In this document: piece by piece, positions 29,197 to 61,636 of the stretch
Position numbering within the stretch: the first letter of the stretch is position 1
Layout of the letters: every line of letters begins with the position of its first letter
NCBI GenBank assembly: GCA_022820025.1
Contig: JAJEGF010000081.1
Coordinates: 48,608 to 112,607, forward strand
Source of the DNA: Chloroflexota bacterium
Lineage (GTDB): Bacteria; Chloroflexota; UBA11872
DNA length: 64,000 bases
Direction: 5' to 3'
Notes under the pieces: model-generated
Seen by the model: only the letters and a program-made list of their open reading frames with translations
Told to the model about the DNA's origin: nothing
Database searches by the model: none
Program-made: the position numbers and the translations under genes

Positions 29197-29286
29197 GGAG
29201 GGGTGCCCGAGTGGTTTAAGGGGCTCGTCTCGAAAACGAGTAGGCGTGATGAGCGCCACGTGGGTTCGAATCCCACCCTCTCCGCC
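29197..29286 (+). tRNA. tRNA-Ser (anticodon CGA)
   Basis: Acceptor GGAGGGG/CCTCTCC. Anticodon loop CUCGAAA. Long variable arm. T-loop GGTTCGAATCC. Confidence 0.8.
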
Positions 29287-29326
29287 GGACGCCGACGAAA
29301 GCCGCGCTTGCTAGCATTCGCCTTCA

Positions 29327-29414
29327 GGAGAGGTCGCCTAGAGGCTTAGGGCGCACGCCTGGAAAGCGTGTAGGGGGCAACCCCACGTGGGTTCGAATCC
29401 CACCCTCTCCGCCA
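29327..29414 (+). tRNA. tRNA-Ser (anticodon GGA)
   Basis: Acceptor GGAGAGG/CCTCTCC plus encoded CCA. Anticodon loop CUGGAAA. Long variable arm. Identical T-arm to the upstream tRNA. Confidence 0.8.
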
Positions 29415-43073: not shown

Positions 43074-44504
43074 TCAGCGCAACGCCGATGGTATCCCACC
43101 CACCCGCGGCCTGGGCCAGATGGCGGCAATGAGCAGAACGGGGACCAGCGTCACCGTCGTCAGCGCAACGGCCGCCGTGGCGACCGCAACCGGCCACGGC
43201 CAGTCGGATGTCACCAGCCGCCAGAGCGACTGCGCCTTGCTCCGCGTCGGCTCCGCCGCGCCGTGAGCGACAAACTCGAGATCCTGATCCGGCCATGTCA
43301 GCTCGCCGTTCACCCAGAGCCGCCCGTCCTTGAACCGATCCCCCTTCACCATCCCAACCCGCAGAGATGCCGTTGGCTCAACGTCAGCCACGACTTGCAG
43401 AAACACTTGACGCCCCTCGTCCGCGGTCAAGAGGGGAACGTCGATATCGATCCACGCCGGAAGATCGCCGGCGGGGACTTCGACCCGTCCCTCCCGGAGC
43501 ACGCGGCCCTGCCCCGAGTCAAAGCCCTCCAGCACCCGCCAGATCGCCTCGCCCGACCGCCGCTCGGGGTCACGATTCGCCAGCGGCACGCTCAGCCCTG
43601 AAACCGCACCCGCCGGCATGGGAAACCCCTGCGCCAACGACTGCTCAGTCTCAAGGCTCACCCAGTACGTCACGTGTCCCGCTGTCGCTCGTGAATCCAC
43701 CAGCGGCACGCGATACGCAAGCCCCGCGAAGAGAACGCCAACGGTCAAGACCGCGAGAGTCGACCCGATAGTCACCCGCTTGATTTGACGCTCGCTGAAC
43801 GTGTCTCCAAATGGATTTGACCGGGCCAACGCCGCAGCGGCGCTCAGGGCTATCAGGAGGGTCCCCCCAAACTCAAGGGTCTCCTCCATCACCACCATGA
43901 GATCACTTGCCCGGCCTCGGAACACCGCCAGGGTCACCGCTTCGCAGAGCAAAGCGAACAACCACACGGCCAGGCCCAGCGCGAACGGCGCCCGAACGCT
44001 TCGAGTCCGCAGCCCGCGTACCCAGAAGATCCCCATCAGAATCGCAAAGGCCGCGATCAGCGGGCTCACCAGCAGAACCCAGACATACGGGCCGGCGCTC
44101 GCTATCAGATCGACGCCCAGCAGCCGCGATCCGATAGCCGGCACGATCGTCGAATGAACCTCGGTCGTCTCTTCCCAGCCCAGTACGAGTGCTGTGCCCG
44201 ACAGCACAGCCCAGCCACCAACGGCAATCCGACCTTCACCTCGTCCACGACTCACAACAGCCGCCAGCATTGCGAGCACGCCCAAGACCAGCAGGGCTGC
44301 GGTTGAAGCCCGGTTCGCCAGCCTGCCCTCATAGTCGATGTCCGGGTTCAGATCTCGCGGAATCGACTCCGGCGCCAGCCACCCGGGAAACGCCAGGCTC
44401 ACCAGGTTCGGAACCACCACCCCACCCCACCAGAACAGCACCGCGCCCAGCAGCAGCAGCCGCCCGACCCAACCCGCCCGCGGCCTCGTCACCAGCGTCC
44501 GCAT
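43074..44504 (-). CDS. Polytopic integral membrane protein, hypothetical
   Basis: About 475 aa with many hydrophobic helices. No kinase or transporter motifs seen. Immediately downstream of the response regulator. Confidence 0.4.
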   Translation of the reverse strand: MRTLVTRPRAGWVGRLLLLGAVLFWWGGVVVPNLVSLAFPGWLAPESIPRDLNPDIDYEGRLANRASTAALLVLGVLAMLAAVVSRGRGEGRIAVGGWAVLSGTALVLGWEETTEVHSTIVPAIGSRLLGVDLIASAGPYVWVLLVSPLIAAFAILMGIFWVRGLRTRSVRAPFALGLAVWLFALLCEAVTLAVFRGRASDLMVVMEETLEFGGTLLIALSAAAALARSNPFGDTFSERQIKRVTIGSTLAVLTVGVLFAGLAYRVPLVDSRATAGHVTYWVSLETEQSLAQGFPMPAGAVSGLSVPLANRDPERRSGEAIWRVLEGFDSGQGRVLREGRVEVPAGDLPAWIDIDVPLLTADEGRQVFLQVVADVEPTASLRVGMVKGDRFKDGRLWVNGELTWPDQDLEFVAHGAAEPTRSKAQSLWRLVTSDWPWPVAVATAAVALTTVTLVPVLLIAAIWPRPRVGGIPSALR

Positions 44505-44522
44505 CCGCTCCACGTCGCGGCG

Positions 44523-45218
44523 TCAGCCATGCTTCCGCAGCACGTACCCCACCCCAGGCCTTGTCACCAGGTGCCGTGGATCCGCCGGATGTCGCTCGAT
44601 CTTCTCCCGCACCCGCCGCACATACACCCGCGCCAGGTGCCGGTCCCCCGCATACTCCGGCCCCCACACCTCGTCGACCAGTTGCGCCGGCCTGAACACC
44701 CGGTCGCGGTTCCTCGCCAGGAACCGCAACAGTCGAAACTCCGAGGCGCTCATCGCCACCGGCCGCCCCGCCACCCGCACCTCCGCCGCCGCAAAGTCCA
44801 CGGTCAGCCCGGCCGACGCAAACGGAGGCCACGCCCCCGCCGGCGCCCGCCACAGCACCGCCCGCAGTCGCGCCAGCAACTGATCCAGGTCAAACGGCTT
44901 CGCCAGGTAATCGTCCACCCCCGCCTCCAGCGCCCGCGCAATCCCCTCGTCATCCCCGGCCAGCGTCATGGCAACCACCGGCGCCTCACATACCTCGCGC
45001 AGCCGCGTCAACACGCACAGCGCCTCCACGTCCGGCAAGCCCAGATCAAGCAACACCACGTCGGGCGGGTCGGTTTGGGCCTCCGTCAGACCTCGCGAGC
45101 CAGTCCCGGCAAACACCGCCCGGAAATCGCCCACCGCCAGGTCCGCGCGCAGCTGCCGCACGTACCGCAGGTCATCCTCAACCACCAGCACCAGCGGGCG
45201 CTCGCGCCTGCCCCTCAT
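44523..45218 (-). CDS. Two-component response regulator, OmpR/PhoB family
   Basis: Receiver-domain DD...D (VVLLDLGLPD) and C-terminal winged-helix block (YVRRVREKIE). Confidence 0.75.
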   Translation of the reverse strand: MRGRRERPLVLVVEDDLRYVRQLRADLAVGDFRAVFAGTGSRGLTEAQTDPPDVVLLDLGLPDVEALCVLTRLREVCEAPVVAMTLAGDDEGIARALEAGVDDYLAKPFDLDQLLARLRAVLWRAPAGAWPPFASAGLTVDFAAAEVRVAGRPVAMSASEFRLLRFLARNRDRVFRPAQLVDEVWGPEYAGDRHLARVYVRRVREKIERHPADPRHLVTRPGVGYVLRKHG

Positions 45219-46312: not shown

Positions 46313-46519
46313 ATGAGCATTCGCCCAAGCCGCTTGCGCTTGGCCCCGGCGGCTGTCGTCTCCCTGCTGCTTCTTGCAATTGCGGCCGGCTGTCAACGGG
46401 TGACGGTACAGGAATCTCAGGAAGACCGCGTCGAGTGCCGCTCGCCGTTTCACGGGGATCCCATGCCCACCAAAGACAATCCCGTGCCGACCGCGATCAT
46501 GCGCTGCAATGACCCCTGA
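46313..46519 (+). CDS. Small putative lipoprotein (68 aa)
   Basis: Signal peptide plus lipobox LLAIAAGC. AGAGG SD. Immediately upstream of the PD40-LRR gene. Confidence 0.35.
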   Translation: MSIRPSRLRLAPAAVVSLLLLAIAAGCQRVTVQESQEDRVECRSPFHGDPMPTKDNPVPTAIMRCNDP

Positions 46520-46880
46520 GACCCGTTCGAGCCAAAGCTACATAGAGTCGCAGGCAGGAGGAGTCGGGATAGTGCCTCCGTCGGCATCCACCGGTACCAC
46601 GAGCTACAACAGGCGACTGCGGACGCCTCCGACCAGCAACGCCGGCGACCTTCCCGCACCAGTTGGACCCGAGGACGATCGATGCGCTAAACCAGCCGGA
46701 CTGACAAGGGTTATCACGGCGCCAGTCATGCGCTTGAGCCCGTCGCCGACCGCCGAAGAGTCTTTGACGAGCCAGAATGGGGCCTGTGAAGCTCTGCCGG
46801 CCTAACGCACATGATGTTTCGACAGGGCCCGAGTCATCTGGTTGAGGCAATACAACTACCCGACTTTGCGCAACCGACGC

Positions 46881-49205
46881 ATGAGTCGCTTTAAACGCAC
46901 CGCCTTGACCGCCAGCCGCGCGGTCGTGACTGTCCTCATCCTTGGAGCGTTCACCGGCTCGATTTCGCAGAACGCAGCGCTCAATGTTGGCGCGACGAAA
47001 GAGACTTTGGCGGCGTCCAAGAGCGGCAGTCGGCTAGCAGACCTTCGGCAGACTGCTGTGCAGGCCCCAGGATCTGCAACGATCCCCCCTTCCCGCAAAG
47101 CTCAATCTGCACTCTCAGAGACGCACCACTCCGCACTCGCCTCAATCTCAGACGACGAACCGCATTCGTTGCTGGCCGTTGCCGGTGGTGCTGCATCCGG
47201 GCAGAGCCAGTCCGAAGTTCAAGCAGAAAGGCGCGGTCTCGTTCCATCGTTATCACTTGCGCCCGGCACACCCGGGTCGTGCCAGGTCTATGGTTCGGCA
47301 GAGCGCTCGCACCGTCTCGACTACGGCCTCCACCGCAGCGGTTTCGACGCTGACCCTCTCTGGACCCGGGACATCAGCGGCTTCGAGACTCCTCCGCACT
47401 GGAGCACGGATGGCCGGTGGATCGTGTTCGGCGAGGGCGCCGAGGTGCACATGGTCTCGATGGATGGCAGGCAGTTCTTCCGGCTCGTTCGTGAATCCGA
47501 CGACTTCCATATCGGCTCGGCGCACTACGCCTTTAACCGACTGACGGGACTTGACGTATCCAGCGACGGAGCCGCGCTGGTGTACGCCGTGTGCTGGACG
47601 TATGTGAGTGGTGGAAGTCGGAATATGCAAACGATAAGGATTCCGCCGGAAGGTGGACGTCCGGGGCGTGCAATCTGCTTGGATTTCGACGCCTTGGCCG
47701 AACGTGTGGGGGAGTGCCCCACACGCAATCCGATGATTTCCGACACAAAAATTCTCACGTATCCGTCCGGCGACTCGACCTTTCGGGTCAAGGACGACTT
47801 CTACGAGGTCACGCTGGTTCGGCTCGATCAGGGAACGTTCACGCGTCTCCATCCAGGCAACTTTCCAGCGTTCTCGCCGGACGGCACACGGATTGCTTTC
47901 GTTGCCCAGGACGGGCGCGATGGACCCTCACGTCTCTACACCATGACAACGGACGGCACCGACGTGCGGAACCTGGGCGTCGCGCCGGTTAATCATCCGC
48001 CGCGTTGGTCGCCGGACGGCTCGCGCCTCGCATACGTCCTAGGGGACGAACACCCCTACGCGATTTACACGATCAACGCCGACGGGACTGAACGACAGTA
48101 CCTCTCGACTGCGATCAGCGGACCGGCGTGGTCGCCGGACGGCTCGCGGGTCGCGTTTGCCAAGGCCGACGGTCGCTCGACGGCGGTCTACACGATCGCT
48201 GCGGATGGAACGGACGCTCGGCCACTGACGACCCTACGTGTCGAGCCAGCCTGGGCATCAAGCATTGAGTGGTCGCCGGACGACTCGCGGCTCCTGGTTG
48301 CGTTTACTTCGTCCGTCTGGGTGGTGGCCCTTGACGGCGAATCCATGCACGAGCTGGTGAAGGTGCACGAGTCGCCGCACGTATACGAGGCGCGCTCCGT
48401 GCCCGCCTGGTCGCCCGATGGGACGCGGATCGCGCTGTACCAACCTTCGGAAGGTGGCAGCGGATTCCGTTACAGCGGCGGCGAGGTGGTGCTTGCCAGC
48501 CTGGCGTCGGATGGGTCGGACCCCCGGATGTTGGTCCGCGATCACGATGGTTTGATGGCGGAGCGTCAGGAAGATCTCGTGGTCAAGATCCCGGCGACGC
48601 CGGCGTCGTGTCGTGCCGGCGTGGTGGTATCGGCGCCCCTGCGCAACGCTGGCTTGGTCCGGGATTGCGAAACGCTGGTGGGACTACGGCACGACCTGTT
48701 TGGTACCGCCGCCACCAACTGGGGACGCGATGTTCCCGTAAACGACTGGGAGGGGGTGTCCGTTTCCGGCCCTCCTCCCCGAGTCAGGAAATTGGACTTC
48801 GGTGACGGGTCACTCGGTGAGTTCGCCCATGGCGGGGTCCTTCCGACGGCGTTGGCGGAGTTGGAATACCTTGACAGATTGGACCTCTCGGGTAATCGGT
48901 TCACCGGCCCGATTCCTGCCGAGTGGGGCCGGCTGACGAGGCTTCTCGTGCTGGACCTCTCCGACAACGATCTGACCGGCGAGATTCCAACTGAGCTGAG
49001 CGGCCTCGGCCGCTTAAGGGTCCTGGACCTCTCCAATAACGCGCTATCCGGTCCCATTCCGCCCGAGTTGGCCAAGATCGAGACTCTTCGAGAGTTACAA
49101 CTCGGCGGCAATTCACTGACGGGCTGTATCCCAGCCACGCTTTCGAATCTGCGGGGTATGGACACGTCGCTCTTGGGCCTTGAGCGGTGCGTGCCAGAGA
49201 CATGA
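46881..49205 (+). CDS. Secreted protein with TolB-like PD40 beta-propeller repeats and C-terminal plant-type leucine-rich repeats
   Basis: Signal peptide after ATG 46881. Repeated (A/P)WSPDGSR(I/V)AF motifs (PD40). C-terminal 24-residue LRRs LDLSxNxLTGxIPxELxxLxxLxx, four to five copies. Confidence 0.6.
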   Translation: MSRFKRTALTASRAVVTVLILGAFTGSISQNAALNVGATKETLAASKSGSRLADLRQTAVQAPGSATIPPSRKAQSALSETHHSALASISDDEPHSLLAVAGGAASGQSQSEVQAERRGLVPSLSLAPGTPGSCQVYGSAERSHRLDYGLHRSGFDADPLWTRDISGFETPPHWSTDGRWIVFGEGAEVHMVSMDGRQFFRLVRESDDFHIGSAHYAFNRLTGLDVSSDGAALVYAVCWTYVSGGSRNMQTIRIPPEGGRPGRAICLDFDALAERVGECPTRNPMISDTKILTYPSGDSTFRVKDDFYEVTLVRLDQGTFTRLHPGNFPAFSPDGTRIAFVAQDGRDGPSRLYTMTTDGTDVRNLGVAPVNHPPRWSPDGSRLAYVLGDEHPYAIYTINADGTERQYLSTAISGPAWSPDGSRVAFAKADGRSTAVYTIAADGTDARPLTTLRVEPAWASSIEWSPDDSRLLVAFTSSVWVVALDGESMHELVKVHESPHVYEARSVPAWSPDGTRIALYQPSEGGSGFRYSGGEVVLASLASDGSDPRMLVRDHDGLMAERQEDLVVKIPATPASCRAGVVVSAPLRNAGLVRDCETLVGLRHDLFGTAATNWGRDVPVNDWEGVSVSGPPPRVRKLDFGDGSLGEFAHGGVLPTALAELEYLDRLDLSGNRFTGPIPAEWGRLTRLLVLDLSDNDLTGEIPTELSGLGRLRVLDLSNNALSGPIPPELAKIETLRELQLGGNSLTGCIPATLSNLRGMDTSLLGLERCVPET

Positions 49206-49399
49206 GGACAACTCCTCAAAGTGACGTTCGTGAAGTCCTGCGGACAGCCGAGCGGTGAATGAAACGTCGCTCACCCACCCGCCCACGGATCAATCACCTC
49301 AACCCCACACCCCCAAAAACCCCTCCACATCCCGCGTCGCCACACCCATCCCCTTGGAGCGCGCGATTGCCGCAGTCTGGCAGTCCGCTTGACTGATCA

Positions 49400-49830
49400 C
49401 CCGACGCACATCGCGGCGGCCGGCCGCAACCTCGGCTTACGCCTGGACGGCCGCCGCGTCAAAGGCCAGCACCCGCCTGCCCAATACCTCGCCAAACAGT
49501 TGATCCACGGCCGTCGCTAACCCATCGCAACGCCATCCCCCCAGCAGCGGCCCGATCCCCGTGCGCATCTCAGATTCGGTCACCGCGGTCACGAACAACC
49601 CGCCAGTGTCCTGTCGGTCCGCTCAGGCCGGCAACGCGGGCGCCGGGCGTGCCCGCGTCAACTCCGAAGTAACGTTCGTGTCCAGGACGATCACCCGCCC
49701 TTACCTCAGTCGAACCGCGGCGCCTCCCGCATCGGCTCCCGCGGCGGAATCGCCAGATCCACGCCCCTAAGCGGCTTGAACAGCTCGTGAATCGCCGTAG
49801 CAAGATTGCGCACGGGCCGTTTCGAGCGCT
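49400..49830 (-). pseudogene. Decayed VapBC/FitAB-type toxin-antitoxin remnant
   Basis: Minus-strand 49706-49830 encodes PVRNLATAIHELFKPLRGVDLAIPPREPM, paralogous to the C-terminus of the intact RHH antitoxin at 53885..54130. DNA is about 80% identical for roughly 70 nt and then diverges. Minus-strand 49430-49560 encodes a 43-aa PIN/VapC-like fragment (…RRVLAFDAAAVQA*). Confidence 0.3.
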
Positions 49831-49962: not shown

Positions 49963-50460
49963 TCACCCAGCCGGCACGCTGTACTCCGCCCGTACGACTT
50001 CGATGGCCCGGTCGTGACATGCGTTGTTCAGCTTGTCGTCAATGGCCACGGGCACTTCCGGCCCTGACATCGTTCGCATTTCCAGCATTCGAGCCTTGAT
50101 CTCCACCTCGGGGTCGTACTGGTGCCACCACAGGAACTTCCACTCGTCGCTGATTGCCTTGAAATGCTGCTTCGCGCCTTCGGCTTTGGCCGACTTCATT
50201 GAGGGATCGACGGTTATCAGCGCCAGCGCAAGCAGCGATGCCAGCATGGCCAGCACCGCGCTCACCCACGGCGGCAACACATCGATCACAAAGCTTGAGC
50301 CGGCAAAGAACGACACGGCAGCCACGGCGGAAATCAGCCACTGGTGCTGCCGCCGATATCGATCGGTCAACGCCGCGAAATACAGGTAATTGCGCTCAGC
50401 GTCGAGCCGCCCATCCCACGCTATCTGCGCAATCCCCGCCTGGGAGATTGCCTCAGCCAC
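49963..50460 (-). CDS. 2-TM membrane protein, possible SLATT-like effector
   Basis: N-terminal amphipathic helix (YLYFAALTDRYRRQHQWL), two adjacent TM helices, then an about 75-aa helical C-terminal tail. GTG start. Confidence 0.4.
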   Translation of the reverse strand: MAEAISQAGIAQIAWDGRLDAERNYLYFAALTDRYRRQHQWLISAVAAVSFFAGSSFVIDVLPPWVSAVLAMLASLLALALITVDPSMKSAKAEGAKQHFKAISDEWKFLWWHQYDPEVEIKARMLEMRTMSGPEVPVAIDDKLNNACHDRAIEVVRAEYSVPAG

Positions 50461-50521
50461 CCAAGCACTTCTGGCTGGTTGGACTCGCCCATTTTGGCCC
50501 GCGTCATAGCCAGGTCAGGTG

Positions 50522-51043
50522 TCATTGGGGCCCGCTTGCATCAAGAAACTGCCGTAGCCGCTGGTTGACTTCCTGATGCGGCAAGAAAACCTCGGGATCG
50601 TCGATCCGGCGCTCCATCGCATCGGCCAACCGCGCGGCGCCACATAAGCCAGCCGCGTACAGCCGGTCGATAGTCCACAACACTCCGTGCACGCGCCGGC
50701 CCTCCGCTTCAGCCACCTGCCGTAGGCGCTTATCGGCAGTGAGCAGCAGGCTGTTCTCGTGATGTCGCGCTGCAACGAGGCAGGCGCAGTCCGCCAGCGA
50801 GAGTGCGGCGTGCTCGGTTCTCAGCGCGAACGACTCGCGGGTCTGGTCGAGTGAGAGTTCTACAGTCGCAAACCCGGCGCTTTGCAGATAGCGCCACTCC
50901 AGGTCTGTGAGATTCAGCAGTTCAGAGCGTCGGACGATCGCCGGAACAAGGAACTGATACGGCAGCTCCAAAGTGACCGCATGCAGCTGAACCTTGTGCA
51001 GGTCGATCAGGCAGCACGCGTCGATGACGATCCGACGGATCAC
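50522..51043 (-). CDS. PIN-like domain protein (DUF4411/DUF3368-like), putative toxin or nuclease of a two-gene module
   Basis: Acidic residues in VIDACCLIDL ... LADCACLVAA ... LLTADKRL. GTGA overlap with the upstream HTH gene. Confidence 0.5.
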   Translation of the reverse strand: MIRRIVIDACCLIDLHKVQLHAVTLELPYQFLVPAIVRRSELLNLTDLEWRYLQSAGFATVELSLDQTRESFALRTEHAALSLADCACLVAARHHENSLLLTADKRLRQVAEAEGRRVHGVLWTIDRLYAAGLCGAARLADAMERRIDDPEVFLPHQEVNQRLRQFLDASGPQ

Positions 51044-52428
51044 GCCGTACGACGGCTCGCTATTTCAGGGACCGGAATCTCGGCTTCCAGTGCCGCTCGT
51101 GATTTGGACGCTTCGCGGACATCAGGGGTGGCGTAGCTGGTACGAGCCTCGATCCGACCCTGCCGATCGTGGATAACCACCTCCGACCGGCTGCCGATCG
51201 CGATTTCTCGCGCGGCGGAAATCGCGTCCGCCTGCGTTGGGTGTGTCGATGTTGGCCTTCGAACGCCGATGCTCTTGACCGCCCACCGGCCCAGATACGG
51301 GACGACGTGCTGGGTCTTTCGAGACGCCTCGCGTCCTTCCTCAAACTCTGCAGCGCTCGGGCCTCGCAATTCATCCCCGACTTCACGCAGCGAGCGCCGC
51401 AACAGCTCAGCACCTCGGAAGGGTGCGAACAGCTGCTCGCCCAGCCCGCGCCAGACTAGGTCCTCAAACCGTTGCGGCTTCTCGAAGGCGCCCAGGCCCT
51501 CGTTTTGGGCGATCGGATCTGGCTCCCGCTCGCGCCATGCCCGCAAACAGCCGCGAAACGCACGATCGAGAGCTGCCGCCGAGACAACCCCGACCTCGCG
51601 CAACCGGGTAAGCATCACCGACGCCGAGACGCCATACATAAGTTTCAGGCGGACCAGTTCGCCATAAGTAAACCCATGCCGGTTGCTCCCCGCCTGCGCT
51701 CGCAGGTGCTCTTCGGGGACTAGAAAAGCCTGAGCGAATCGGTCAATCGTCTTGTCACGCCGAAGGTGCGAGTCGGCAACTGAATGGACTGCGCGCTCCG
51801 CCAGCTCGCGGGCCAGGGTCAGGCGACGGCTTTCGATCCGGGCCCTGCTGGAGACCACGATGGCTTCGGTATCTGGCCGAGATCCAGCCAGCTTGACGGT
51901 GCAGACGAGACCATCGAAACGTGCGGGCAGGTCGACTTCGATCAACTTAATGCCCTTGGATTCCAGCAGGCCGGTCATGCTGGGGATCGGACCCGAGCCG
52001 AGATTCCAGTCCCGGCGCAGTCGGTTCGCCAGCCCCTCGGCGTCCTCCAGGCTTCGGATATGAACGGGGCCCAGACTGCCGAACGGGTCAGGCGCCGGCT
52101 CTAGGTCCAGGATGTTCTCGATGGCCAGGTAGCTCTCAAGCTGCTCGGTGATCAGAACCTCGGCGCGGGCGCGGTCCTTGGCCGACGTACCTGGGTGCCG
52201 GCGGAACTCGACCGCCTCCAGCCCCTCCACCTGGCCTCCAAATAGGAAGTCCAACGACACGTCGAGCGCCTGGCCCAGACCGACCAGCACTCGCGAACTC
52301 GGCATCATCTTGCCGGCCTCGTACTTGCTGATCGCCTGCACCGAAACCGACGGCGACATGCGCATGGCAAGCTCGCGCATGGACAATCCCGCCTTCTTCC
52401 GCGCCAACCGCAGCCGCTGCCCGAACAC
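51040..52428 (-). CDS. Three-domain protein: XRE-family HTH, degenerate ImmA/IrrE-like (COG2856) domain lacking HEXXH, and C-terminal DUF2188
   Basis: HTH: RLRLARKKAGLSMRELA...SVQAISKYEAG. Middle: TLARELAERAVH aligns to the ImmA (F/L)TLAHELGH zinc site, but His-Glu are replaced. C-terminus: HVVPYLGRWAVKSIG...EVVIHDRQGRIEARTSY, a DUF2188 signature. Confidence 0.55.
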   Translation of the reverse strand: MFGQRLRLARKKAGLSMRELAMRMSPSVSVQAISKYEAGKMMPSSRVLVGLGQALDVSLDFLFGGQVEGLEAVEFRRHPGTSAKDRARAEVLITEQLESYLAIENILDLEPAPDPFGSLGPVHIRSLEDAEGLANRLRRDWNLGSGPIPSMTGLLESKGIKLIEVDLPARFDGLVCTVKLAGSRPDTEAIVVSSRARIESRRLTLARELAERAVHSVADSHLRRDKTIDRFAQAFLVPEEHLRAQAGSNRHGFTYGELVRLKLMYGVSASVMLTRLREVGVVSAAALDRAFRGCLRAWREREPDPIAQNEGLGAFEKPQRFEDLVWRGLGEQLFAPFRGAELLRRSLREVGDELRGPSAAEFEEGREASRKTQHVVPYLGRWAVKSIGVRRPTSTHPTQADAISAAREIAIGSRSEVVIHDRQGRIEARTSYATPDVREASKSRAALEAEIPVPEIASRRTA

Positions 52429-52458
52429 CCCGTCCTCCCCCCGCCCTCAGTGGTTGAC

Positions 52459-52474
52459 GATTACTCTTGTAATC
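52459..52474. promoter_or_regulatory. Perfect palindrome GATTACTCTTGTAATC upstream of the XRE-fusion gene (candidate operator)
   Basis: Lies 31 nt upstream of the GTG start at 52428, in a locally AT-richer stretch. Confidence 0.35.
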
Positions 52475-52931
52475 CGTGGAATTCTACCAAGGGTTGATAA
52501 CTGACCGCGTCCGGCTCGATCTGATCAGGCCAGCGTTGAGTCGTAGGCCTTGGCAGATCGCCACCGCTGACCAATCAGAGCGCGGTCGGCAACACAGGCA
52601 AGAGTGCGCTTGCATGCGCCTACTGCAACGCAATCACCCCGCCCCCTCCGGGTCGTATGAAAGCCGCTCCGCCGTCATCACCGCCCACCAGTCCGGCGAC
52701 TCGATAGCCATCGCCGGTCAGCTAGTCCAAGACTTCGACCAGGACTCAAGCGGCAGCTGATCGTCCGAGGCAGACGACGCGGCCAAATCGTGAATCTAGC
52801 CATCAGCCGCAGAGTCGTTCGATCGGCATCCCCAGCCGCGAAATCAAGCACTGTCTGGGGCGGCCGGGGTGAGCCGTGAGCCCAGTGGCGATAGGAGTAT
52901 CCTGAACAGGCGTGATCGGGGAGGCGCTCGA

Positions 52932-53165
52932 ATGCCAAAGGTGCTCCAACAGAAGACAACGGTGCTGCCAGGTGGCAGGGTTGAAATTGTCAGCCCGGAG
53001 TTGCAGGAGGGCCTGACCGTGGATGTGGTGGTGCTGCATGAGCCCAAAGCAAGCGACCGCTCCGTCATGGACATTCTCAACAGTGGGCCAGAGCGCCGTC
53101 TGTTCCAGACAGCGGAAGAGGTGCGGGCCTACTTGGCGCAAGAAAAGGCATCGTGGGACCGCTGA
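52932..53165 (+). CDS. Putative antitoxin of a VapBC pair
   Basis: 77-aa protein upstream of, and overlapping, the PIN gene. ATG at 52932. Confidence 0.45.
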   Translation: MPKVLQQKTTVLPGGRVEIVSPELQEGLTVDVVVLHEPKASDRSVMDILNSGPERRLFQTAEEVRAYLAQEKASWDR

Positions 53166-53608
53166 CCCTGCCTCTCAGTGGCTTGGTCTATCTCGATGCC
53201 AGCGGCCTCATCTATACCGTGGAGCGCATAGAGCCGTACCGCACGCTGCTGGAACCCATGTGGCAGCAAGCGCAGGACGGAAACCTCACCCTCGTGAGCA
53301 GCCCCGTCCTTCTGGTCGAGGTGCTTGTAAAGCCTTTGCAAGATGGCAACACCGAGATCGAAATGCAGTACCGCGAGCTATTTGGGTCCAATGTGGTGCG
53401 ACTGCTCGACGCCGCATACTCGGTGTTTGAGGACGCCGCCCATCTACGCGCCGAGACGGGCCTGAAGACCCCCGACGCCCTCCACGCCGCGACGGCTCTG
53501 CAAGCTGACAGCACCTGCTTTGTGACGAACGACACCGACTTCCGCCGCGTCCCAGGCTTGCCTGTCGTCGTATTGGACGACCTCCTCAAAGCGGAAAGCC
53601 AAGCATGA
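53153..53608 (+). CDS. PIN-domain ribonuclease toxin (VapC-like)
   Basis: LDASGLIY ... DALHAATA ... FVTNDTDF acidic-residue pattern of PIN. Start uncertain (GTG 53153 or TTG about 53186). Confidence 0.65.
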   Translation: MGPLTLPLSGLVYLDASGLIYTVERIEPYRTLLEPMWQQAQDGNLTLVSSPVLLVEVLVKPLQDGNTEIEMQYRELFGSNVVRLLDAAYSVFEDAAHLRAETGLKTPDALHAATALQADSTCFVTNDTDFRRVPGLPVVVLDDLLKAESQA

Positions 53609-53884
53609 GTCTGGCAATGGATGGCAGAGTTGCCCTTATCCGGAGGAGGGTGCCAACGGACCAGACTGAGGACATCGTCAGTGCCTGATGCAATCATCGC
53701 GGAGTTGTGGCGAATCAAGGACGCCATGGCGTGCGAGCACGGGTACGACGTCAGAGTGATGGCCGCCTACCTTCGCGACAAGGAACAATCGCGCCGGTCG
53801 AGCCAGGCCAGCACCCGCGGCTCCGGGTTCGTGTGCATCAGTTCCGAAACGACGCTGGTGTCGAGAACGATCATGGTCGAAGCC

Positions 53885-54130
53885 TCAATCAAACTTCATC
53901 GGGTCGCGCATCGGCTCATGTGGAGGAATGTCCAGGTCCACGCCGCCTAGCGGCTTGAACATTTCGTGAATGGTCGTTCCCAGGTTGCGCACCGGCGCCG
54001 CGTCCCGGCTCAGCGCTTCCCGCAGAATCTCGCGAGCCTCCTGCTCCATCGAACGGCCATGCTCGGCCGCCCGAATTCGCAGCCGCCGCTTTAAGTCCTC
54101 GTCCAGGTTGCGCACCGTAATGCTCGCCAT
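53885..54130 (-). CDS. Ribbon-helix-helix antitoxin (FitA/VapB 'plasmid stability protein' family), apparently orphan
   Basis: MASITVRNLDEDLKRRLRIRAAEHGRSMEQEAREILREAL is the canonical N-terminus of this family. GGAGG SD. No PIN gene downstream on the same strand. Confidence 0.65.
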   Translation of the reverse strand: MASITVRNLDEDLKRRLRIRAAEHGRSMEQEAREILREALSRDAAPVRNLGTTIHEMFKPLGGVDLDIPPHEPMRDPMKFD

Positions 54131-59243: not shown

Positions 59244-59380
59244 CACGCTAAGCCAGGAGTGACTAATTCCGTTTGGAAAAAACTCTTATCGCGCACGCGA
59301 GGCCCCAATTCCCCCCGCCTCAGCGCCTACACTCACACCCCAGGCAACGTCCCGATTCGCCGCCTGGAGGCCTCGGCCAC

Positions 59381-61636
59381 ATGAACCTCGTCGGCTACAC
59401 CGACCGCCTCACCGCCGCCCCCGGCGACACCGTCCGCTTCATGGTCAGCAGCCACTACCCGCGCTACCGCGCCGACCTCGTTCGCCTCATCCACGGCGAC
59501 GAGTCCCCCGCCGGCCCCGGCTTCAAGGAGCGCCACGTCCCCTCCCCCATCAACGCCCACTACCCCGGCCGCTCCAAGCCCATCCACAGCGGCTCCTACG
59601 TCCACATCCCCGCCCACCCCGCCCTCGACACCCTCACCAGCTTCACCCTCACCGCCTGGACCTACCCCACGACCCCCGCCAACGGCCTCCAGGGCCTCAT
59701 CACCCGCTGGACCGGCGACCAGGGCTTCGCCCTCGTCATCGGACCCGATGGCGACCTCTCCCTCCACCTCGCCGACGGCCGCAACCCACCCGTTCACGCC
59801 GCCACCGGCGCCCCCCTCACCGAGCGTGTCTGGACTTTCGTCGGCGCCAGCTACCACGCCCCCACCGGCCGCGTCACCCTAATCCAGCAACCCCTCCGCC
59901 GCTGGCCCATCGCCCCCGACCAAGCCCTCGTCACCCACGACACCCCCGCCGCCAACATCCAGCCAGCCGCGGACACCCCGCTCCTCTTCGCCGCCCTCAC
60001 CGCCGGCCCACCCCAACGCACCGGCCCCATCGCCGCCCCCTACAACGGCAAGCTCGACTCCCCCCACCTCCACGACCGCGCCCTCTCCCCCGTCGAATTG
60101 ACGGCTCTGGCCGACCCCACCACCGACGAACCTTCAGGTGACCCGCTGGCCGCCTGGGACTTCAGCCTCGACATCGGCAGCTACCGCGCCACCGACACCG
60201 GTCCCCACGGCCTCCACGGCCAGGCAGTCAACATGCCCACCCGCGGCGTCACCGGCCGCAACTTCACTGGCGCCGAAACCAACTTCAACCGCGCCCCCCA
60301 CGAATACGGCGCCATCCACTTCCACGACGACGACGTGGAGGACGTGGCCTGGGAGTCCGACTTCCAGCTCACCATCCCGCCCGACCTACCCAGCGGCGTC
60401 TACGCCGCCCGCCTGCGCGCCGGCGACGACGAGGACTACCTTCCCTTCTGCGTCCGCCCACCGCGCGGCACCGCCACCTCTCGCATCGCCGTCCTCATGC
60501 CCACCCTCACCTACGTCGTCTACGCCAACTTCCGCGACATCGACGGCGGCTTCTGGGACAAGGAACGCGTTCCCAACGCCGACCCCACCCTGCACGAACC
60601 CGAGTTCGCCTACATCCGCGCCAACGGACTCCCCGGCCTCTATGAGCGTCACTCCGACGGTTCCGGCACCACCCACGTCTCCCACTTGCGCCCCATCCTC
60701 AACATGCGGCCCAAGTTCCGCTACCGGGTCTGGGCCGCCCCCTCCCGTTTCCCTGCGGACCTCTACCTCATCGACTGGCTTGAAGCCACCGACCAACAGT
60801 TCGACGTCATCACCGACCACGATCTGCACGCCGAAGGCGCCAACCTGCTGGACCCCTACAACGTCATCCTCACCGGCTCCCACCCCGAGTACTGGACCTC
60901 CGAAATGCTGGCCGGCATGCGTACCTACCTCGGCCAGGGCGGGCGCCTGATGTATCTCGGCGGCAACGGCTTCTTCGGCGTCACCACCATCGACCCCGAG
61001 CGCCCCCACATCGCCGAGGTCCGCCGCTGGGGCACCAGCTGGCCCTTCGAGATGCCGCCCGCCGAACGCATCCACAGCACCACCGGCGAGCCCGGCGGCA
61101 CCTGGCGCAACCGCGGCGCCCCGCCAAACGGCCTCGTAGGCATCGGCTCCTGCGCGGCCGGCTTTGACCAGGGAGCACCCTATGCCCTTCAGCCCGACAG
61201 CTTCGCTCCCCGCGCCGCCTTCGTTTTCAAGGACATCGGCGACGACGAGCTCATCGGCGACTGCCCCTCCCTCGTCGTCCGCCACGGCGCCGCCGGCTAC
61301 GAGATGGATCGCCTCGACTTCAGCCTCGGCACCCCGCCCCACGCTCTGTTGCTGGCCTCATCCGTCGGCCATTCCGAGCGCTACGCGACGTTCGCCGACG
61401 AACGCCTTGAATTCACCCAGGGCAAGGACGGCATGGCGACCGACGCCCCGCCCCCGGCAGATGGCCCCCACGCCTTTGTCCGCGCCGACATGGTCTACTT
61501 CGAAACCCCAAACAACGGCGCTGTCTTCTCCGTCGGCTCCATCGCCTGGCGCGGCTGCCTCTCTCACAACAACTACGACAACACCGTCTCCCGCGTCACC
61601 GCCAACGTCCTCCGTCGCTTCGCCGCCGACCAATGA
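59381..61636 (+). CDS. N,N-dimethylformamidase large-subunit-like protein (DmfA2 family)
   Basis: N-terminus MNLVGYTDRLTAAPGDTVRFMVSS...LVRLIHGDESPAGPGFKE typical of the family. ATG at 59381, downstream of the IS right end. Confidence 0.5.
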   Translation: MNLVGYTDRLTAAPGDTVRFMVSSHYPRYRADLVRLIHGDESPAGPGFKERHVPSPINAHYPGRSKPIHSGSYVHIPAHPALDTLTSFTLTAWTYPTTPANGLQGLITRWTGDQGFALVIGPDGDLSLHLADGRNPPVHAATGAPLTERVWTFVGASYHAPTGRVTLIQQPLRRWPIAPDQALVTHDTPAANIQPAADTPLLFAALTAGPPQRTGPIAAPYNGKLDSPHLHDRALSPVELTALADPTTDEPSGDPLAAWDFSLDIGSYRATDTGPHGLHGQAVNMPTRGVTGRNFTGAETNFNRAPHEYGAIHFHDDDVEDVAWESDFQLTIPPDLPSGVYAARLRAGDDEDYLPFCVRPPRGTATSRIAVLMPTLTYVVYANFRDIDGGFWDKERVPNADPTLHEPEFAYIRANGLPGLYERHSDGSGTTHVSHLRPILNMRPKFRYRVWAAPSRFPADLYLIDWLEATDQQFDVITDHDLHAEGANLLDPYNVILTGSHPEYWTSEMLAGMRTYLGQGGRLMYLGGNGFFGVTTIDPERPHIAEVRRWGTSWPFEMPPAERIHSTTGEPGGTWRNRGAPPNGLVGIGSCAAGFDQGAPYALQPDSFAPRAAFVFKDIGDDELIGDCPSLVVRHGAAGYEMDRLDFSLGTPPHALLLASSVGHSERYATFADERLEFTQGKDGMATDAPPPADGPHAFVRADMVYFETPNNGAVFSVGSIAWRGCLSHNNYDNTVSRVTANVLRRFAADQ

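Follow-up and report, generated by a model that had tools for sequence, protein, structure and literature searches.

Genes at the locus

The window, i.e. the whole stretch of 64,000 nucleotides of Chloroflexota DNA that was analysed, includes on its forward strand a gene (positions 46881 to 49205) for a protein of 774 aa (plus stop codon) that combines a PD40 beta-propeller with leucine-rich repeats (LRRs) and is identical (100 %) to a database protein, P0001. A longer ORF on the same strand, 46842 to 49205, is an option if the upstream TTG at 46842 is used; the ATG at 46881 is the conserved start, used by the databases and kept, together with the codons that follow it, in alignments with the related genomes L002 and L003. 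No Shine-Dalgarno-like sequence was seen before this ATG. The GC content of the gene is 63 % and its GC3 is 0.72, compared to 0.81–0.86 in core genes. No paralog lies elsewhere in the window, and another ORF of 787 aa (59273 to 61636) encodes an unrelated Laminin_G_3/DMFA2_C protein.

Though the first-pass annotation was right about the presence of a 68 aa lipoprotein ORF (46313 to 46519, + strand), with AAGAGG 8 nt before its ATG, this ORF is not directly upstream of the PD40-LRR gene but separated from it by 361 bp. Its product (MSIRPSRLRLAPAAVVSLLLLAIAAGC) has a signal sequence in which a positively charged N-terminus is followed by a hydrophobic stretch and a lipobox (LAIAAGC; pattern used, [LVI][ASTVI][GAS]C), and lipidation is predicted. 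The mature peptide of approximately 42 aa contains the conserved motif ECR..HGD..PTKDNP.P.....C.DP. Homologues sharing 46–54 % identity by tblastn and 53–59 % in the alignment were found in L002 (two copies) and in L087; all keep the motif, and the L087 copy and copy 1 of L002 have the same lipoprotein pattern. With a dN/dS of 0.3–0.4 at a dS of approximately 1, the ORF is, on sequence comparison, evidently a real gene under purifying selection. Its product matched no Pfam, NCBIfam or PADLOC family, and none of the 513 matches to a pattern for it in JGI metagenome contigs was confirmed. Occurrences of the small gene were confined to close relatives and, there, to the syntenic locus, in one case without an adjacent PD40-LRR gene, and the gene is missing beside non-syntenic PD40-LRR paralogs. 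It tracks the chromosomal locus and not the PD40-LRR family, and its product is not a partner of that family.

The spacer between the two genes (46520 to 46880, + strand), which forms the 5′ region of the PD40-LRR gene and lies inside a block of high similarity shared with L002, contains no promoter-like or terminator-like site, and there was no Rfam match in or near the locus. The sole terminator-like site (48286 to 48302) is inside the coding region and within chance expectation.

Neighbouring genes in the window encode a response regulator and DUF4389, PIN, HTH-M78 and M23/SLT proteins, with the PIN, RmrA-like HTH-M78, FitA-like and 2TM genes adjoining the PD40-LRR gene. This context is regulatory, toxin–antitoxin or defence-like, rather than one of adhesins. 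PADLOC matches were confined to downstream genes (RmrA-like, PDC-S70 and 2TM models); neither the PD40-LRR protein nor the small ORF matched, and membership of the former in a defence system was rejected on this ground.

Organization of the PD40-LRR protein

Five parts can be distinguished in the protein, namely a signal peptide or signal anchor, a disordered stalk, the propeller, a Cys-capped LRR module and a C-terminal cap. Pfam matches were to PD40 (E 3e-16), DPPIV_N (1e-11), LRR_1 (1e-16), LRR_8 (7e-12) and LRR_4 (6e-9), and the scan against Pfam and NCBIfam detected no further domain and no catalytic or signalling domain. These matches, seven WSPDG-type motifs and an N-terminal hydrophobic segment bear out the original reading of a PD40 propeller-LRR fusion with an export signal, and the predicted structure consists of a disordered stalk followed by confidently modelled propeller and LRR parts, the latter with a fold like that of plant ectodomains. 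Of the eight Cys residues, five (C134, C238, C577, C596 and C770) vary little or not at all across the aligned family, the TGC of the last repeat is conserved as well, and this set fits an extracytoplasmic protein with predicted disulfide bonds.

The putative signal peptide or signal anchor (MSRFKRTALTASRAVVTVLILGAFTGSISQNAA; 46881 to 46979, + strand) includes the top hydrophobic peak of the protein (residues 14–28). Many family members have a lipobox at the equivalent position (e.g. LVGC, LAGC, VAGC or AIGC); unlike these relatives, the protein in the window has no lipobox Cys, and its signal-peptide cleavage site is ambiguous. The stalk that follows (46980 to 47375, + strand) is approximately 130 aa long and Ser/Ala-rich (15 % S, 15 % A), and residues 1–167 have pLDDT values <50 in the full-length model. 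It is the most variable part of the protein, in which both dN/dS (0.60) and column entropy reach their maximum. In the folded domains dN/dS is 0.25–0.28, and selection on the gene is purifying.

The PD40/TolB-like propeller (47376 to 48575, + strand; residues ~166–565) was recognized by the Pfam models PD40 and DPPIV_N and contains WSPDG-type motifs at residues 174, 226, 331, 376, 417, 464 and 510 and a clade-specific, Cys-containing insert at residues ~245–290. Its pLDDT is mostly 85–95 in the full-length AF2 model. When the PDB was searched with Foldseek, the best match was to TolB (E 2.5e-15), followed by the propellers of DPP-IV and prolyl tripeptidyl peptidase (PTP).

The LRR module

Five LRRs (48777 to 49148, + strand), one irregular repeat of 28 residues and four canonical repeats of 24 residues that begin at residues 661, 685, 709 and 733, follow the propeller and an N-terminal cap. 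Among 25 family members, the spacing of repeats is exactly 24 in 110 of 119 cases, and the family consensus, LxxLrxLdLSxNxLTGpIPpELGq, conforms to that of the plant-specific subtype (LxxLxLxxNxL(S/T)GxIPxxLGx, 24 residues). A search of PDB sequences with the C-terminal 204 aa placed ectodomains of plant receptor kinases (GSO1, FLS2, MIK2, BRI1 and PEPR1) on top, and the repeats share 30–49 % identity with plant LRRs. The module was modelled with a pLDDT of 92 and a pTM of 0.89, and the top 50 matches in a fold search were all to plant ectodomains. By period, consensus, PDB sequence matches and fold, the repeats belong to the plant-specific subtype, as first proposed, and not to the short bacterial type.

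The best fold matches were to the five-repeat ectodomains of SERK1/2, BAK1, BIR2/3 and SOBIR1 (PDB 4z64_C, 6g3w_C, 8wec_E, 6fg7 and 6r1h), with TM scores of 0.70–0.79 over approximately 190 columns and 31–35 % identity. These ectodomains resemble the module in having about five 24-residue LxxLxLxxNxLxGxIPxxLxx repeats between a helical N-cap and a Cys-containing C-cap. However, the PD40-LRR protein differs from the plant co-receptors in its bacterial host, in the 63 % GC of its gene, in the position of the LRRs C-terminal to a propeller, and in having neither a transmembrane helix nor a kinase. It ends 18 residues past the last repeat, with no Pfam kinase match and no transmembrane helix after the LRRs. 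The C-terminal cap (49149 to 49205, + strand) contains the invariant C770 (in LERCVPET, then the stop). The putative partner of C770 is the Cys of the TGC in the final repeat, which precedes the cap, and the PD40-LRR family keeps the pattern N.LTGCIP....L.LP.CE.

The N-cap (48588 to 48776, + strand) is of a bacterial type (C.AGVVV.P..N.GLVRDCETL..LR..L.G...NW....P...WEGV.V). Its two Cys residues, C577 and C596, are invariant in 25 family sequences and in 22 sequences of the module, and it is modelled, with a pLDDT of approximately 90, as an 18-residue helix followed by a beta-hairpin. The segment alone had no Pfam match at E<=10, including to the plant cap LRRNT_2 (PF08263), and a phmmer search of the PDB with it gave no match outside the LRR part. 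By sequence, no link to LRRNT_2 could be made, the Cys residues lying in C.AGVVV and DCETL and not in the CxWxGVxC of the plant cap; in the model, the helix and hairpin appear to be a structural analogue only.

Among orthologs, no part of the protein is better conserved than the LRRs and the N-cap, and this suggests that the ligand is conserved too. A test for diversifying selection on the concave face of the LRRs was negative, mean entropy being 0.50 at exposed concave positions versus 0.76 at convex ones. The concave face thus has no excess variability and no arms-race signature such as many host-interaction proteins show.

Distribution of the family and of the module

PD40 and LRR domains occur together in approximately 64 of the best 120 database clusters, and those clusters that bear names are from Chloroflexota or Dehalococcoidia. 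Full-length matches in a genome collection, searched with generic PD40 motifs, were likewise from Chloroflexota/Dehalococcoidia in four of four cases among the matches listed. In three related genomes the gene sits at the same chromosomal position. Paralogs are arranged in tandem, or have giant fn3/cadherin/Calx-beta proteins and further PD40 proteins as neighbours, and the family as a whole includes multiple paralogs with varying numbers of LRRs in non-conserved contexts. The architecture is thus common in relatives, which is half of what the first-pass annotation had named as refuting it; the repeats themselves are not ordinary bacterial LRRs. Dozens of related proteins have the same design, which makes the protein representative of the uncharacterised 'eukaryote-like' surface binding proteins rather than a one-off, though no description of a PD40 propeller combined with capped plant-type LRRs was found in the literature searched.

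The capped LRR module alone was found in approximately 18,000 protein clusters at E<=1e-30, with up to ten copies in one giant protein. A large metagenomic family of modules, giant multi-module proteins included, carries the same non-plant N-cap motif (DC..L). The first-pass view that this LRR subtype is uncommon in bacteria was not supported, the capped module being very abundant in metagenomic proteins, and this abundance bears on the origin of plant-type LRR ectodomains. One idea, which we regard as doubtful, is that the C-terminal unit is a single instance of an extracellular cassette of prokaryotes, very large as a group and essentially undescribed, which would combine a bacterial-specific N-cap not covered by Pfam, a short series of plant-type LRRs and a Cys-containing C-cap. 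The cassette would occur alone, fused to PD40, Big_2 or T9SS-tail domains, or in tandem arrays of up to ten in giant proteins, and it might be an evolutionary sister or source, rather than a derivative, of the short SERK/BIR-type plant ectodomains.

Proposed role and alternatives

We consider it reasonably likely that the PD40-LRR gene product is an exported, envelope-tethered, non-enzymatic binding protein of an uncultured Chloroflexota bacterium, with a possible part in host interaction. The Sec-type signal peptide or anchor would take the protein across the membrane, and the disordered stalk would keep the folded part off the membrane. The folded part would offer two ligand-binding scaffolds, the PD40/TolB-like propeller and the compact, disulfide-capped solenoid of five LRRs. 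Its most likely function would be that of an adhesin or a receptor-like 'eukaryotic-like protein' with an extracellular protein or peptide as its partner, and this partner may be a surface component of a host (sponge) or of a neighbouring cell. A surface adhesin or receptor, as the first-pass annotation had it, is plausible, with export and display predicted. We propose that the PD40-LRR gene, together with the spacer before it, makes up a block of approximately 3.3 kb that has moved between related genomes later than the genes on either side, and that sits beside the variable, toxin–antitoxin/defence-like stretch. By blastn, a block from 46465 to 49817 shares 83.5 % identity with L002, whereas the left flank shares 71 %.

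LRR-containing 'eukaryotic-like proteins' have been reported from sponge-associated Chloroflexi, with a proposed role in interaction with the host (Bayer et al. 2018, PMC6306507). The PD40-LRR protein resembles these eukaryotic-like proteins of sponge symbionts (ANK, TPR, LRR, fn3 and cadherin) in being a Chloroflexota protein with eukaryotic-type LRRs and in having paralogs that adjoin the fn3/cadherin/Calx-beta giants. The metagenome-assembled genome (MAG) sets with the same isolate-naming schemes from which full-length relatives come also hold Poribacteria and Candidatus Poriferisodalis, and a sponge origin of the window genome is putative; literature searches on SRR16351681, SAMN17524325 and Poriferisodalis gave no match. 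Among the 'eukaryotic-like' surface proteins of uncultured Chloroflexota, which are poorly characterised, the protein is a concrete, well-modelled new example, and its ligand, if found, could reveal how such bacteria recognise hosts or neighbours.

Alternatively, the propeller and LRRs could bind peptides or proteins out of dissolved organic matter for delivery to separate peptidases or transporters, as an accessory to extracellular or periplasmic turnover. The DPPIV_N match (PF00930) scores above the gathering threshold (44 vs 22 bits), the fold matches include the propellers of DPP-IV and prolyl tripeptidyl peptidase (PDB 2eep and 5yp4), and sponge Chloroflexi have been described as degrading dissolved organic matter (PMC6306507). 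However, in place of the catalytic alpha/beta-hydrolase domain of DPP-IV-type S9 peptidases the protein has the LRR module at its C-terminus, and S9 peptidase identity was rejected as Pfam detected no Peptidase_S9 domain after the propeller. The protein has no other catalytic domain, and no peptidase or transporter gene was consistently adjacent across five contexts. We regard substrate capture as rather unlikely.

The TolB propeller has six blades. The propeller of the PD40-LRR protein, with its seven PD40 motifs, has TolB (PDB 2ivz, 2hqs and 1crz) as its best structural match, and it matched TIGR02800 (NCBIfam) with an E value of 3e-25; the syntenic loci also share a conserved M23/SLT peptidoglycan hydrolase gene several kb downstream. 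This could point to a TolB-like scaffold for envelope maintenance that connects peptidoglycan or cell-wall enzymes with the membrane. Yet the TIGR02800 score, 89 bits, falls far short of the family cut-off (343), and the match is confined to profile positions 157–297 in the propeller, the TolB N-terminal domain (Pfam TolB_N) is missing, there are no tol-pal genes nearby, and LRRs are fused to the propeller. With neither a full-length TIGR02800 match nor a tol-pal cluster, TolB orthology was rejected. The multiple paralogs, varying LRR numbers and non-conserved contexts are also unlike a housekeeping envelope component, and we give such a scaffold a low probability.

A role in phage or cell–cell recognition, as a variable surface determinant maintained at a mobile or defence hotspot and swapped between strains, seems no less improbable. 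The low GC3, a dS against L002 of 0.26 for the PD40-LRR gene versus 0.49–0.50 for the flanking genes, the PIN, RmrA-like HTH-M78, FitA-like and 2TM neighbours, a DUF4276/AAA ATPase insertion just upstream in L002, and the syntenic gene in L085, which is only 41 % identical when its neighbours share 61–93 %, are in keeping with swapping. Against this role are the lack of a PADLOC match for the protein itself, the absence of phage genes nearby, the purifying selection and the conservation of the LRR face among orthologs. An exported binding protein remains the reading that we prefer.

Recent acquisition of the LRRs from a plant or alga, to give a secreted effector mimicking a plant receptor, is highly improbable: the identity of the repeats to plant LRRs and the weak NCBIfam matches to the Xanthomonas type III effectors XopAC/AvrAC, XopAE and XopL, also bacterial and with plant-like LRRs, are outweighed by scores of only 43, 36 and 21 bits against cut-offs of 450, 600 and 500, confined to the LRR region (residues ~666–772), on which Xop identity was rejected, by the absence of an E3-ligase or Fic domain and of a type III secretion context, by the 63 % GC of the gene, and by an N-cap with no LRRNT_2 match and a Cys pattern unlike that of plants. 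The Sec-type N-terminus and the predicted disulfide caps would make the protein extracytoplasmic rather than injected. As to the horizontal acquisition raised earlier as a possibility, nothing indicates a recent transfer from plants. The locus is neither a unique fusion nor evidence of plant-to-bacterium transfer but a typical representative of a family that recurs and is already deposited but unstudied, its module belonging to the very large metagenomic family with the non-plant N-cap motif.

Architecture and fold of the PD40-LRR protein

An ORF scan gave a TTG-opened reading frame of 787 codons at 46842–49205 (+). The ATG at 46881 is the public gene-call start and is kept in relatives, and the gene at 46881–49205 (+) encodes a 774 aa protein identical to the database protein P0001. 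Pfam matches were to PD40 (E 3e-16), DPPIV_N (1e-11) and LRR_1 (1e-16), with LRR_8 and LRR_4 also found; seven WSPDG-type motifs can be read directly off the sequence, and four 24-residue repeats are exact (LEYLDRLDLSGNRFTGPIPAEWGR, LTRLLVLDLSDNDLTGEIPTELSG, LGRLRVLDLSNNALSGPIPPELAK and IETLRELQLGGNSLTGCIPATLSN). This is no chance pattern, and the fusion of a PD40 propeller to LRRs proposed in the first-pass annotation is borne out.

In an AlphaFold2 model using an alignment of 25 family members, the N-terminal 167 residues, comprising a hydrophobic signal segment followed by a Ser/Ala-rich stalk, are disordered, and the beta-propeller (residues ~168–560) and the LRR module (residues ~570–774) are both modelled with confidence. 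In the family alignment, cysteines C134, C238, C577, C596 and C770 vary little or not at all, and conservation extends to the TGC of the last repeat; this would fit an extracytoplasmic, disulfide-bonded protein. The best-supported reading, which we consider moderately probable, is a bipartite binding protein without enzymatic activity that is tethered to the cell surface and would act as an adhesin or receptor-like 'eukaryotic-like protein'. It may plausibly take part in host interaction: LRR eukaryotic-like proteins have been reported from sponge-associated Chloroflexi (PMC6306507), and relatives of the protein come from MAG sets that also hold Poribacteria and Poriferisodalis.

When modelled by itself, the LRR module (pLDDT 92, pTM 0.89) retrieved plant ectodomains as all 50 of its best 50 PDB fold matches, the closest being the short five-repeat co-receptors SERK1/2, BAK1, BIR2/3 and SOBIR1 (TM-score 0.70–0.79 over ~190 columns, 31–35 % identity). 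A PDB sequence search concurred, with GSO1, FLS2, MIK2, BRI1 and PEPR1 leading. Across the family, which has 4 to 12 canonical LRR units per member, 110 of 119 repeat intervals are exactly 24 residues long and the consensus LxxLrxLdLSxNxLTGpIPpELGq is the plant-specific signature; hence, the earlier assignment to the plant-specific LRR class was correct. A peptide-capture accessory is an alternative role that is less well supported than a surface binding protein or fails on its defining features. The same applies to a TolB-like envelope scaffold. TolB was the first PDB match of the propeller in Foldseek (E 2.5e-15), followed by DPP-IV-type propellers, and the NCBIfam search of the protein returned only sub-threshold matches, to TolB (89 bits vs a cut-off of 343) and to the LRR regions of XopAC, XopAE and XopL.

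Every family member retains an N-cap, C.AGVVV.P..NPGLVRDCETL..LR..L.G...NW....P...WEGV.V.G.P.RV, that has no Pfam family and, in Pfam and PDB searches, no sequence match to plant caps. The likeness to plant proteins therefore concerns the kind of repeat and the fold as a whole, and the module is not a member of the plant LRRNT_2-capped family. Any recent transfer from plants is unsupported, and a plant-derived effector is a poor candidate.

Distribution of the fusion and of the LRR module

With the full-length protein as query, both PD40 and LRR Pfam domains were present in ~64 of the best 120 clusters (90 % identity clusters; 31–84 % identity). Named clusters are Chloroflexi/Chloroflexota MAG proteins labelled only 'DPP IV N-terminal domain-containing' or 'hypothetical'; the TrpE encoded in the window, with 86 % identity to a named protein from Chloroflexota, puts the source genome in this phylum too. 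In a one-genome-per-species collection, four loci among the matches listed matched both halves, all of them in Chloroflexota/Dehalococcoidia MAGs. The architecture is common, not rare as had been implied, and the protein, itself uncharacterised, belongs to a family that recurs in Chloroflexota and combines known kinds of domain.

The capped LRR module by itself is very widespread, matching 120 292 cluster representatives (50 % identity, eukaryotic LRR proteins included) at E≤1e-3 and 18 280 at E≤1e-30. The top matches are giant proteins in which the whole module, with its DC..L-type N-cap, is repeated up to ten times; P0134 has ten DC..LL...D.LAG...LNW....P...W.GV N-caps. Metagenomic giants among P0134–P0283 are 1.2–7.8 kaa long and carry many copies of the whole module. 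Shorter matches include stand-alone modules, fusions to Big_2 or T9SS tails, and plant, chytrid and green-algal LRR proteins. There is also a small chance that this capped mini-LRR cassette is an ancient, massively expanded prokaryotic module related to how SERK-type plant ectodomains arose.

Genomic context and divergence

Three related genomes (loci L002, L087 and L085) carry the gene at an equivalent position, in the order membrane protein, OmpR-type response regulator, DUF4389, PD40-LRR gene, then HTH-M78, PIN and M23/SLT. Divergence of the locus is mosaic. Compared to L085, the PD40-LRR gene is the most diverged (41 % identity vs 61–93 % for its neighbours), whereas compared to L002 it is closer than its flanks (84 % vs 58–75 %). 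A block at 46465–49817, which holds the gene, its upstream spacer and ~600 bp downstream, shares 83.5 % nucleotide identity with L002:5584–8937, and because the left flank shares only 71 % and dS is 0.26 for the gene but 0.49–0.50 for flanking genes, a recent exchange between related genomes is suggested. GC3 is 0.72 for the gene and 0.73–0.74 for the small ORF upstream of it and for PIN and HTH-M78 downstream, against 0.81–0.86 for core genes. Together with the mosaic divergence, this places the gene in a variable, recombining stretch adjoining toxin-antitoxin/defence-like genes. Such a setting might favour a strain-variable recognition determinant. This reading is also less well supported or fails on defining features; the gene is under purifying selection (dN/dS 0.25–0.28 in the folded domains, 0.60 in the stalk) and hypervariability of the concave LRR face was not seen among the orthologs.

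Non-syntenic close homologs lie beside giant fn3/cadherin/Calx-beta and other PD40 proteins, or in tandem pairs. Those at L088:764–11539, L089, L084 and L090 are 52–80 % identical to the PD40-LRR protein, and their flanks include fn3/cadherin/Calx-beta giants (1289 and 1520 aa), PD40 propellers and an IS1595 transposase.

The small lipoprotein

The 68 aa ORF at 46313–46519 (+) has a signal sequence, a lipobox (LAIAAGC) and a mature part of ~42 aa with the conserved motif ECR..HGD..PTKDNP.P.....C.DP. Copies are present in L087 and L002 (46–54 % identity by tblastn, 53–59 % in alignment A3) and dN/dS is 0.3–0.4 at dS ~1; hence, it is a genuine gene. The lipoprotein reported to lie directly upstream of the PD40-LRR gene is therefore real, but it is not immediately adjacent, ending 361 bp before the ATG. 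It follows the locus, downstream of DUF4389, and not the PD40-LRR family. It was not found in L085 or in any non-syntenic paralog locus examined, leaving the implied functional link between the two unsupported, and it lies mostly outside the block of high similarity to L002, with only its last 55 bp inside. L002 has a first copy straight after DUF4389 and a second, which has lost its start codon, beside the PD40-LRR gene. In this region (L002:2693–5650), a DUF4276 and AAA_15/AAA_21 ATPase gene pair is inserted between the two copies, and short repeated stretches of the small-ORF segment and of the 3′ end of DUF4389 border the insert.

Neighbouring genes in the window

The toxin-antitoxin/defence-like stretch just downstream of the PD40-LRR gene (49963–54130, minus strand) encodes a 2TM protein (165 aa; weak PADLOC '2TM effector' match), a PIN-like protein (173 aa; PDC-S70), an HTH_3, Peptidase_M78 and DUF2188 protein (462 aa; PADLOC RmrA, 1e-34) and, at 53885–54130, a FitA-like RHH antitoxin. 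A 479 aa multi-pass membrane protein that matches no Pfam family (43074–44513, −), directly downstream of the OmpR-type response regulator (44523–45218) and syntenic in L002 and L085 (58–61 % identity), could be an unrecognised sensor partner. At 59273–61636 (+) lies a Laminin_G_3 and DMFA2_C (N,N-dimethylformamidase beta-like) gene that L002 and L087 also have downstream of M23/SLT; the 787 aa product matches the TTG-started PD40-LRR ORF in length only by coincidence. The window also includes a tandem paralog pair with TMEM260-like protein O-mannosyltransferase domains (PF11028; 8–1558 and 1754–3280, +) and two adjacent tRNA genes (29197–29411, +), its sole Rfam matches.
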